34,435 bases of DNA, from IMG/VR virus record IMGVR_UViG_2529293069_000011. One strand, given 5' to 3'. Position 1 is the first letter of the stretch; each line of letters opens with the position of its first letter. Position numbers: made by a program. The stretch is from a virus (Duplodnaviria; Heunggongvirae; Uroviricota; Caudoviricetes). Positions 15,001 to 18,000 of this stretch are shown here, piece by piece.

Positions 15001-18000
15001 GCGCCGCGCGTTGTTTCCGGTATATCGACTTTGATGTACGGGTTAATTTGTCTGGCGACCGTGGCAAGGTCTTTATTCAGGAGGGCTTTGCATTCTGCTT
15101 CGGTATACGTTTTACCGGGAATGATGTCTTTTCCGGTGTGTCCGTGACATACAGTCCATACGCCAACGATATCTTCGTATGGTATGTAGCTGACACCTTC
15201 CAGGCCATCGTCACCACTCGGACCAGTGATGAGCACAGACGCTATGGCAACAGCCCCACCACCAATAGCAGCAGCAACAGCCTTGCGTAATGATGGCGAC
15301 ATTATTCACCTCTCGCAGCCTTACGCTTATCTTCTTTAATCTTGAAATAAAGGTTTGTCAGATACGTCAGCAAGCCAAACACCAAGCTACCCAATACGCC
15401 TATTGCCACCCACTGGGATGGGGAGACTTTGTCCAGCAACTGCAGTAGCCAGTATCCCGTCCCCACCGCTGACGTGGTGTATGACACACCTGTTGTTATT
15501 TTTTCCATCTGGTACATACCCCGTCTCCCGTTATCCGGAAGCTGACAACAATAAAAAGCCACCAGTTAATTCCTGATGGCCCTGATGCATAAACGTCATA
15601 ATACCTGACTGTTATGATTGACAATAATGATAATGTTTATATAGAAAGGTTCCCGATGTGTGTTACATATCATTTCTCCACGGGGAATATCCCCACGCCA
15701 GCGCAGACTCTTTTACCCGTTCTCTTCTGCGCTGGCTCTTTTTTATTATGCTGCTGCATTTACCTCTGGCACCATGCTTTCTATCTCAACACAATACGTG
15801 GTACTTCTTGTAACCAATATCATAACGATTAATCGACATAGAATTTCTCCCGTGTACAGGAACAGAGTTAAAAAGCCGGAACCGGAATCAAATCACAGGA
15901 TGACCATCTGCCAGTGGCAGGTCATAAAAAAAAGGCCGCGCCATGCGCAGCCAGAACTCACAAGGAAAATGATAGAAGGAAATAACATTAGTGATGTACG
16001 CATGGCGCCTCCCGCTAAGTTCTGCAATGATCAAACAGAACTCGCTACGTGCCCTTAAAACTCGATCATTTAGCCCCTCCAAGGAGGATTCACCATGCGG
16101 TTGATTTTTTAATAAACAGTAAACAAAAAAGTCAAGAATTATTCATTCTGTTCTTTCATCATCGGCCACAGCAATACCACAATGCCGCAGACCAGAGCGC
16201 CATCAGTCAGTACCAACATTATCCTGCTGGTGAAATCCATCATCACCATCACTAAAAGCAGGATCACAACAGCAAGCAGACACAGTTTATAAAACAATGT
16301 TCAGGAAACGCATTCAGCATGCCTAAGGTTCTATTCCTACGAATAGCCAACTTGCAACTTAAAATATTATTTATGCAGCCAATTAAATTCTGGTCCTTAC
16401 AATATCAACCTGAAGATTCTTATCTTGTGCTGATTGATAAATGACAAACCTTTTACTACCTGCATTGAAAGAAGTAGACAAAACCAGACAATTATCATAA
16501 CGAGCAAGAACATAATACCAACCATCATTATAATTAATCATTTCATATTCTTTCTTAAACTGTGGTTTGTAATATCCTGTCAGAAATGAAAAAAGCCAGA
16601 AATATGCCACAAAAGCAATCATCACAATCTCAAAAAAATGTTTTTTTATAAATGGCTTATCATAGAAGCATGATACCGATAAAAATCGCCCATAAGATCT
16701 TATCGAAATTGTAACCGCCAGCGCAATCGCTGCTGACAGTAGCAAAAGAGGTACCTGAATCTTCTGTCTCAATATAGAAAACTCAATAATTGCCGGCACA
16801 AACAATAATTCCACAGCAAAATAAAGGCGAAATACATTTAGCTCTTGCATAGAATGTTTTCTTTTCACTGCGAAAAAGAATACAACACCAATACCCCAAC
16901 CGATAAGAAATATAGCAATGACGATAACTGCAAAAAATAAACTTCTGGCAACATCATCAACACCTGCACCTACAATCCACCATGGGAAGCCGTAGTAAAA
17001 AGAAGTACCCCATCCATAGAAATAAGCACTCCCCCATCCAAGGCATCCCATGTAGGCAATAAAAAGTGAAGAACTCCTGAGCAGCGCACCATCCTTCATA
17101 ACCACCCCAATACAAGATGATAACATTGGCTTACAACTCATAACAAAAGCAATTCAATGCCGTCAAGAGGTTACAGGCTAAAAAAACTCTATTACATAGC
17201 AGCCAGCATGTTTACCGTACAAGTACAACTCAGGGCATAAAAAAAACCCACTCGGCAGCGGGTTTATACATTTTTTACAACATACCAAATTTGCATGAAG
17301 TATATGGCTTTTAATCCAGTTTTGCAATATTTTGCTGTAAAAATGCTGCCTTTTGTTTTGAACGTGTTCTCGTCACAAGCAATAAAGCATCACTATCAAG
17401 CTGTAGAAAAATGTGCTTCATTGCAACCCAGCGTTCAGTAAATGTCTCGGACCAGTTTTTTGTTGTCACTCCCACCAATGATGCCAGTGTCTGGTATTCA
17501 TAGGCCTCACGCCCTGCAAGTTCGCTCTTCACATCCTGTGCAGCCAGCCAGATTAACGTCTTCAGGCGATCCAGTGTCTTACCTGCAATTTTTCTGTTAC
17601 TTAACAAATCTTTAAACTCGCTCCATGCCCATTGCGTTATGGTGACCTGATGCCCCCATCGAACGCTTTCGCTGTAACACCAAAGCAACCATGCTTTCTG
17701 ATGTTCATCGAGAGACAAAACCGCGCGGCGCCATGAAGAGGTTGAGAATTCAACCGGGCTGACCAAAGCAATGGATGAACCTTTTGCGTACGACTGCTTA
17801 CCGGAAGTCGGCGTATTATCCAGCGTAATCATCTTGCCAGTTACCACATCCAGAATGCGCGGCTTCTTTCGTTTGTATGTACCAGTATCAAATTGTGCAT
17901 GCTCCTGCCAGGCTTCGAGCTGGCCTTTCGTTGCTCCGTTCAAGTCAGCAGTAGCTGCCATAAGTTGCTCACGAACATACTGTAAATATTGGGTATTCAT

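Follow-up and report, generated by a model that had tools for sequence, protein, structure and literature searches.

Does the region directly downstream of the Q gene in the virus record IMGVR_UViG_2529293069_000011 hold the switch for the late genes and, if so, to which family of such switches does it belong? This member of the Caudoviricetes was analysed over its whole stretch of 34,435 nucleotides (hereafter the window), in which the late-gene region is read on the minus strand. An original prediction had tentatively likened a promoter and a hairpin with a T-run at the end of Q to the pR'/qut/tR' unit of lambda. We are highly confident that this region is the control unit for the late genes of a lambdoid prophage with a Q protein of the phage 82 family, and that it is composed of the promoter pR', a putative Q-binding element (QBE), a promoter-proximal pause element and the terminator tR'. 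This reading is carried by the sequence elements themselves, by their homology to phage 82, by their conservation among relatives and by the gene context. The elements are listed below, with positions relative to the predicted transcription start.

17311 to 18000, minus strand: Q antiterminator gene of the phage 82 family, 229 amino acids from the annotated ATG at 18000.
17322 to 17327, minus strand: -35 hexamer TTGCAA, positions -35 to -30, within the Q coding sequence, found by consensus scan.
17305 to 17321, minus strand: spacer AACTGGATTAAAAGCCA of 17 nt, positions -29 to -13, which holds the Q stop codon.
17299 to 17304, minus strand: -10 hexamer TATACT, positions -12 to -7, from the scan and from alignment to relatives.
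17290 to 17292, minus strand: predicted transcription start AAA, +1 to +3, with +1 at A17292.
17279 to 17287, minus strand: predicted sigma70-dependent pause element, with TGG at +6 to +8 (extended -10-like) and TATGTT at +9 to +14 (-10-like).
17267 to 17278, minus strand: segment GTAAAAAATGTA, +15 to +26, in which G24-U25-A26 is the expected pause site.
17244 to 17265, minus strand: tR' hairpin AAACCCGCU-GCCG-AGUGGGUUU, +28 to +49, from the scan and from folding.
17239 to 17246, minus strand: tR' U tract of eight U, +47 to +54, with three of the eight T inside the stem.

The Q protein matches Pfam PF06323 (306 bits, E = 1.7e-91) and PHROG 304, and it is 100% identical to the phage 434 protein CPT_434_67, which is annotated as 'Q82-like'. 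At the nucleotide level its gene is about 90% identical to the Q gene of phage 82 (X92588), and the maximal open reading frame (ORF), which begins at a GTG at 18084 (17311-18084, minus strand), would encode 257 amino acids. PF06323 has been named the Q82 family, which is without a solved structure and may or may not act as a closed nozzle (PMC9388147); a sequence search of the PDB with the Q protein of the window returned no relative. Membership in the lambda type of pR'/qut unit, defined by a PF03589 Q, a -10-like element at +1 to +6 and pausing at +16/17, is ruled out by the PF06323 Q and by a pause element that lies at +6 to +14. Nevertheless, the predicted layout resembles that of the lambda pR'/qut/tR' unit (the 6S RNA unit) in having a constitutive promoter just after Q, a Q site in the spacer, a sigma70-dependent promoter-proximal pause and a terminator followed by lysis and structural genes, all at the same position in the genome. 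The differences are that the two Q families are unrelated (PF03589 in lambda), that the sites share no sequence similarity, that pausing occurs at +16/17 in lambda and is expected at +25 here, and that termination falls at +193 in lambda as against a predicted position of about +54 here.

The proposal that a sigma70-like arrangement overlaps the end of the Q ORF was borne out by the consensus scan and by direct reading, which place TTGCAA, the 17-nt spacer and TATACT at 17327..17299 on the minus strand with 9 of 12 consensus positions matched. Because the Q stop codon (TAA, 17313-17311) falls inside the spacer, the -35 hexamer lies within the Q coding sequence. The AAA start is found 6 nt past the -10 hexamer, and 33 nt separate the final base of that hexamer from the first base of the hairpin, in agreement with the distance of about 35 nt that had been proposed; the U tract ends at 17239, as predicted. 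Since the match to the hexamers alone is at chance level, the case for pR' rests on homology and conservation, and it is position together with conservation, not the hexamers by themselves, that carries the significance.

Conservation was assessed with scans of the Q protein that yielded 80 viral loci (Q 87-100% identical) and 20 loci from other Enterobacteriaceae (Q 59-73% identical), the latter from genera including Citrobacter, Klebsiella, Raoultella, Enterobacter, Leclercia and Franconibacter. The geometry of the family was counted over 99 loci, with Q 59-100% identical, that represent 45 distinct arrangements. In 43 of these arrangements the -35 hexamer and the pause motif are spaced such that the former stands at position -35, and a hairpin with a U-run begins between +28 and +60 in 38, with stem sequences that vary between lineages. 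In an alignment of 24 loci, TTGC of the -35 hexamer and most of the -10 hexamer are invariant, TATACT of the window being aligned with a near-invariant TATATT, and the AAA(T) column of the start is invariant or nearly so. Within the pause element G7, T9 and A10 are invariant, T11 and the GCC that follows the element are nearly invariant, and beyond about +27 the sequences diverge freely. The suggestion that a pR'/qut/tR'-like unit follows Q is thus supported by the PF06323 protein, by hexamers aligned across loci of the Q82 family, by the AAA start and by the terminator.

The most informative comparison is with pR' of phage 82, studied in the Roberts and Hochschild laboratories, for which we relied on the features stated in the text of two papers (PMC5001585 and PMC4914094) and on GenBank record X92588. 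The phage 82 promoter starts at AAA, has a -10-like pause element that is nearer to TATAAT than that of lambda and is accompanied by an extended -10 motif, and carries GCC at +15-17; pausing takes place at +25, where a U follows a G, and at +26 (PMC5001585). The last 83 nt of X92588 hold the -35 hexamer and the spacer as far as the Q stop codon, and positions -35 to -19 are identical to the window. From -18 to -13 the window differs from the 82-type relatives at about three positions, and the spacer is partly conserved in distant loci. One group of relatives (the L056 type) shows no difference from phage 82 in the final 83 nt of Q, and its initial transcribed sequence, AAATCTGATATTTTGCCAATGTTGTAC, shows all of the published features when the first A is taken as +1: AAA, an extended -10-like element, GCC at +15-17, G24 and U25. 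Because the L056-type leader reproduces every published feature of the phage 82 promoter, it fixes the +1 numbering, and the leader of the window aligns with it column for column.

By this numbering, the unit shares with phage 82 the Q family, the sequence that begins with the -35 hexamer and ends with the Q stop codon, the 17-nt spacer and the AAA start (PMC5001585, PMC4914094), as well as TGn with a -10-like element at +6 to +14, G24-U25 at the pause position and an intrinsic terminator thereafter. It differs in the -10 hexamer (TATACT here, TATATT in phage 82), in the pause element (TGGTATGTT at 17287-17279 on the minus strand, +6 to +14, as against TGATATTTT in phage 82) and at +15-17, where GTA replaces GCC and an A-run covers +17 to +22. 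In addition, the terminator hairpin begins at +28 here and at about +50 in phage 82, with RNAs of about 54 nt (predicted) and about 80 nt, respectively, and a leader hairpin found at about +13 to +37 in 82-type relatives is absent.

A pause-inducing element just past the start site, which the original prediction had named as something to look for, is present in the predicted leader. The leader reads AAA at +1 to +3, TGG-TATGTT at +6 to +14, GTA at +15 to +17 and AAAAAT at +18 to +23, followed by G24, U25 and A26, and this register places a pyrimidine preceded by G (U17268, or U25, after G17269, or G24) at the published +25 pause position. At +15-17, GTA stands where relatives carry GCC or GTC/CGC, and G15, which corresponds to the -11 G of the elemental pause, is retained despite this change. 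In phage 82 the +15-17 segment does not define the pause site and instead tunes the pause half-life by 2- to 5-fold, with A substitutions at these positions of pR' shortening it 2- to 5-fold (PMC5001585). The QBE of phage 82 lies between the -35 and -10 elements, within -31 to +30 (PMC4914094), and the spacer of the window is where the corresponding element would be expected, its individual bases being a prediction.

The tR' terminator has a stem of nine pairs, four of them G-C, with a loop of 4 nt and the tail TTTTTATGCC. On its own the hairpin folds at -12.0 kcal/mol; for the whole leader the folding energy is -15.3 kcal/mol (z = -2.5 relative to shuffled sequences). The terminator starts 3 nt past the pause site, and the terminated RNA is expected to be about 54 nt long. 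The record of phage 434 (OL657226) marks this hairpin as a terminator, loci that are otherwise identical differ in the length of the U tract (7 to 9 T), and terminator-like sites in 14000-21000 number 10 in the consensus scan, compared with 5.3 +/- 2.3 in shuffled sequence.

The original prediction was cautious because the spacing is shorter than in lambda. This observation is correct, but it does not count against the unit, as the loci of the family fall into two geometries. In the long class, to which the 82-type loci belong, the terminator hairpin spans about +42 to +80, whereas in the short class it spans +28/29 to +48/49. Besides the window type, the short class includes four distant loci (L087, Superficieibacter; L096, Scandinavium; L098, L101, Citrobacter), all of which have near-identical hairpins at the same position. 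Because the same geometry recurs in four distant relatives, we read the short spacing as a recurrent natural arrangement rather than as a defect.

Two further kinds of variation were observed among these leaders. Long-class leaders (L052, L056, L071, L099 and L103) form an extra hairpin at about +11 to +39, in which a 5' arm of (U)UGCC, overlapping both the pause element and GCC, pairs with a 3' arm of GGCA(A), with loops that vary by locus. In GTCGCC-type relatives a GUCG/CGAC stem occupies roughly this position, and the extra hairpin is absent from the short class to which the window belongs. Loci whose Q is 99-100% identical to that of the window (L012, L041, L049, L011 and L014) also carry point variants in cis, such as a -10 hexamer of TATGCT in L012, a pause element of TATATT in L041 and, in L049, a G-to-T change that weakens the terminator stem to -6.2 kcal/mol, in addition to U tracts of 7 to 9 T.

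In the mechanism that we propose, sigma70 RNA polymerase would fire constitutively from pR', starting at A17292, and sigma70 kept on the early elongation complex would re-bind at TGGTATGTT to produce a pause at about +25 (U17268). Without Q, the polymerase would escape from the pause and stop at the hairpin and U tract (+28 to +54), releasing an RNA of about 54 nt. Once Q had accumulated, it would bind its DNA site in the promoter spacer, engage the paused complex and travel with the polymerase, overriding tR' and later terminators. Transcription would then extend through the membrane gene, the TciB-like gene and the lysis cassette into the structural genes.

Several observations weigh against this interpretation or limit it. 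The scan recovered the predicted hexamers, but promoter-like sites in 14000-21000 are no more numerous than expected (13 in the scan against 16.1 +/- 4.0 in shuffled sequence). Covariation in the terminator is not significant among the five short-class loci (6 of 9 pairs are invariant, and 95 of 500 shuffles reach the score), a test that is uninformative because the hairpin is mostly invariant among these loci. The pause may be weaker, shorter or shifted because GTA stands for GCC at +15-17, with U23-G24 as an alternative site. It is the identical stretch from -35 to -19, together with its position, that points to the QBE, and initiation, pausing, termination and dependence on Q are all deduced from sequence. 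However, plaque-forming phage 434 carries the identical sequence, and it therefore seems that the unit is functional and that neither GTA nor the short gap prevents its function.

Among the other explanations of this locus, the one that survives best invokes a second promoter on the opposite strand, for which the following feature is the candidate.

17322 to 17335, plus strand: cII-type direct repeat TTGCAATATTTTGC, candidate paQ, overlapping the -35 hexamer of pR' on the opposite strand.

According to this explanation, which we consider unlikely although it is compatible with a late promoter at the same place, the TTGCAA region is also, or mainly, part of a cII-activated paQ-like promoter on the plus strand that would produce an anti-Q RNA while lysogeny is established; cII bound there could also hinder pR' or the binding of Q. 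The 34-kb window contains just two exact TTGC-N6-TTGC matches, this repeat among them, but 2.5 such matches are expected by chance. The second (29176-29189, plus strand) falls, in antisense orientation, within the 5' end of a cII-family gene (28902-29198, minus strand) and has TAAGAT 12 nt further on, an arrangement that we take to resemble lambda pRE. A cII-family protein is thus encoded in the window (PF05269); it was found by Pfam after tblastn with lambda cI, cII and N sequences had returned a lambda Q fragment only, and because of the Pfam match we attribute the earlier negative result for cII to divergence or to the query sequences used. The phage 434 record (OL657226) annotates the 17322-17335 site as a cII site/paQ, marking the TTGCAA region only in this way, on the other strand; it marks the hairpin as a terminator, but neither a late promoter nor a pause element is annotated. 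All relatives in the E. coli group keep the repeat while its N6 varies. However, the repeat is situated in coding sequence (Gln-Gln ... Ile-Ala-Lys), which is a possible cause of this conservation, it is absent in 12 of 18 distant loci, and no credible -10 hexamer was found at the right distance from it.

A combination of the two promoters, in which the palindromic TTGCAA would serve both as the -35 hexamer of pR' on the minus strand, adjoining the QBE, and as the first TTGC of a cII-type paQ-like repeat on the plus strand, appears to us quite improbable. If it were true, cII acting there would make an anti-Q RNA and could occlude pR' or the QBE, such that a single site would impose a double lock on late expression. 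The paQ promoter of lambda, by contrast, is located well within Q and away from pR'.

We find it very unlikely that the terminated leader of about 54 nt acts in lysogens as a trans-acting small RNA, for which StxS of Stx phages provides the precedent. Short RNAs from constitutive, terminated late promoters are known in lambda, 21, 82 and P22, and StxS is functional (PMC7547250); moreover, about 620 of the 5426 complete E. coli genomes carry the unit. The predicted leader resembles StxS in being a short RNA that comes from a constitutive pR' and ends at tR' in lysogens. StxS, though, is a 74-nt product of the processing of a longer leader, is bound by Hfq, has known targets and derives from another type of Q and pR' (PMC7547250). 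In the window, the 27 nt before the hairpin are occupied by the pause element, and both the length and the sequence of the leader vary widely between relatives. A search of Rfam returned no family at threshold for the leader: the match to STnc240 (RF02074) reaches 28.2 bits against a threshold of 55, with E = 0.38 on 5 kb, and is driven by the terminator hairpin and the A-run. Sub-threshold Rfam matches to STnc240, the Phe leader and PyrR were rejected, as they are driven by the hairpin and the U-run.

Finally, it is most improbable that the hexamers are a chance match, that the hairpin is an operon-end terminator for early transcripts including Q and that the late promoter lies elsewhere, for although promoter-like sites are no commoner than in shuffled sequence and another such site (17146-17117, minus strand) adjoins the start of the membrane gene, the latter overlaps the start codon and is without a pause element, whereas in the proposed unit the -35 and -10 hexamers, AAA and the pause motif keep a fixed spacing even where Q is 59-73% identical and the flanks have diverged, in exact agreement with the published features of the phage 82 promoter.

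We therefore return to the reading of a phage 82-type control unit and to the genes that it would control, the first and the last group of which are as follows.

16383 to 17126, minus strand: membrane protein gene (PHROG 1521), the first gene past tR', annotated in phage 434 and in RefSeq, with 247 amino acids as annotated or 252 from an upstream ATG.
14341 to 15517, minus strand: lysis cassette of class II holin, lysozyme and Rz (PF04971, PF00959 and PF03245; RefSeq annotation).

The membrane gene is followed on the same strand by a DUF3927/TciB-like gene, the class II holin, lysozyme and Rz genes and then the terminase genes. The expectation that the membrane gene and the lysis cassette lie beyond the unit is correct, as both are downstream and on the same strand, and their dependence on Q is predicted from this arrangement. 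Three more terminator-like sites were found by the scan further downstream (15952-15934, 15583-15555 and 14167-14148), and processive antitermination would therefore be needed. A scan for tRNAs in 14000-18500 found none, and some relatives carry tRNAs after tR'.

Other features were noted within this downstream region. Before and over the start of the membrane gene (17117-17163, minus strand) are TTGACG and TATGAG separated by about 18 nt, plus a scan match of the form TTGTTA-18-TATCAT with TG; this site could be an independent promoter of the membrane gene in lysogens, and the phage 434 record marks a match to the cII consensus in the same region. At 15923-16128 (minus strand) Rfam matches the sRNA STnc100 below its cut-off of 47 (37.7 bits, E = 1e-5); the match ends at the strong terminator at 15952-15934 and overlaps a 64-amino-acid ORF annotated as a membrane protein in phage 434. 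Positions 15302-16383, compared with 43456-45306 of OL657226, are without a 1.85-kb gene for a SASA-family esterase, which in phage 434 and in Stx1 phages stands between the TciB-like gene and the holin. The window thus differs from phage 434 in this gene downstream of the unit.

Positions 16900-18200 are 100% identical to Escherichia phage 434 (OL657226), and a prophage found in O55:H7 and O157:H7 strains of E. coli matches 14000-18200 with the same 100% identity. The 271 nt at 17150-17420 occur at an identity of at least 99% in the roughly 620 E. coli genomes mentioned above, whose carriers include O157:H7, O55:H7, O111 and O103 strains. Other Q82-type phages and about 600 additional E. coli genomes resemble the window across the end of Q and through the promoter, but no further than about +15 (query 1-143). 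In phage 2B8 (L108, 1380-1620), the downstream module of the window, consisting of a leader remnant and the membrane gene, is preceded by a Q of the lambda type (PF03589) and a lambda-like pR', and its homologue of the terminator hairpin has decayed to -2.2 kcal/mol. Because homology breaks near +15 and 2B8 pairs the downstream module with a lambda-type Q, we read Q, pR' and the pause element as moving together as one exchange unit, and such joint movement is expected if the protein and its site in cis must match.

The biology described here is known, already in GenBank through phage 434 and partly annotated, and it will not surprise a specialist; a literature search for a description of the 434/434B genome found no paper. 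What the analysis adds is the placement of the late promoter, the pause element and tR' in a module that phage 434 shares with about 620 of 5426 complete E. coli genomes. In addition, natural variants of the phage 82 pause site, with GTA for GCC and a terminator 3 nt past the pause, could be used to probe the action of the Q82 family.

Upstream of the unit, the window retains a trace of another Q gene. A relic of 25 amino acids from the N terminus of a lambda-type Q, 88% identical, lies at 19575-19649 (minus strand), directly after the ninI phosphatase gene. From this, lpxR and the Q82-type module appear to have taken the place of a lambda-type Q/pR' module. Between the relic and the Q82-type gene is a gene for an LpxR-family lipid A deacylase (PF09982; 18475-19434, plus strand), which is likely a moron.

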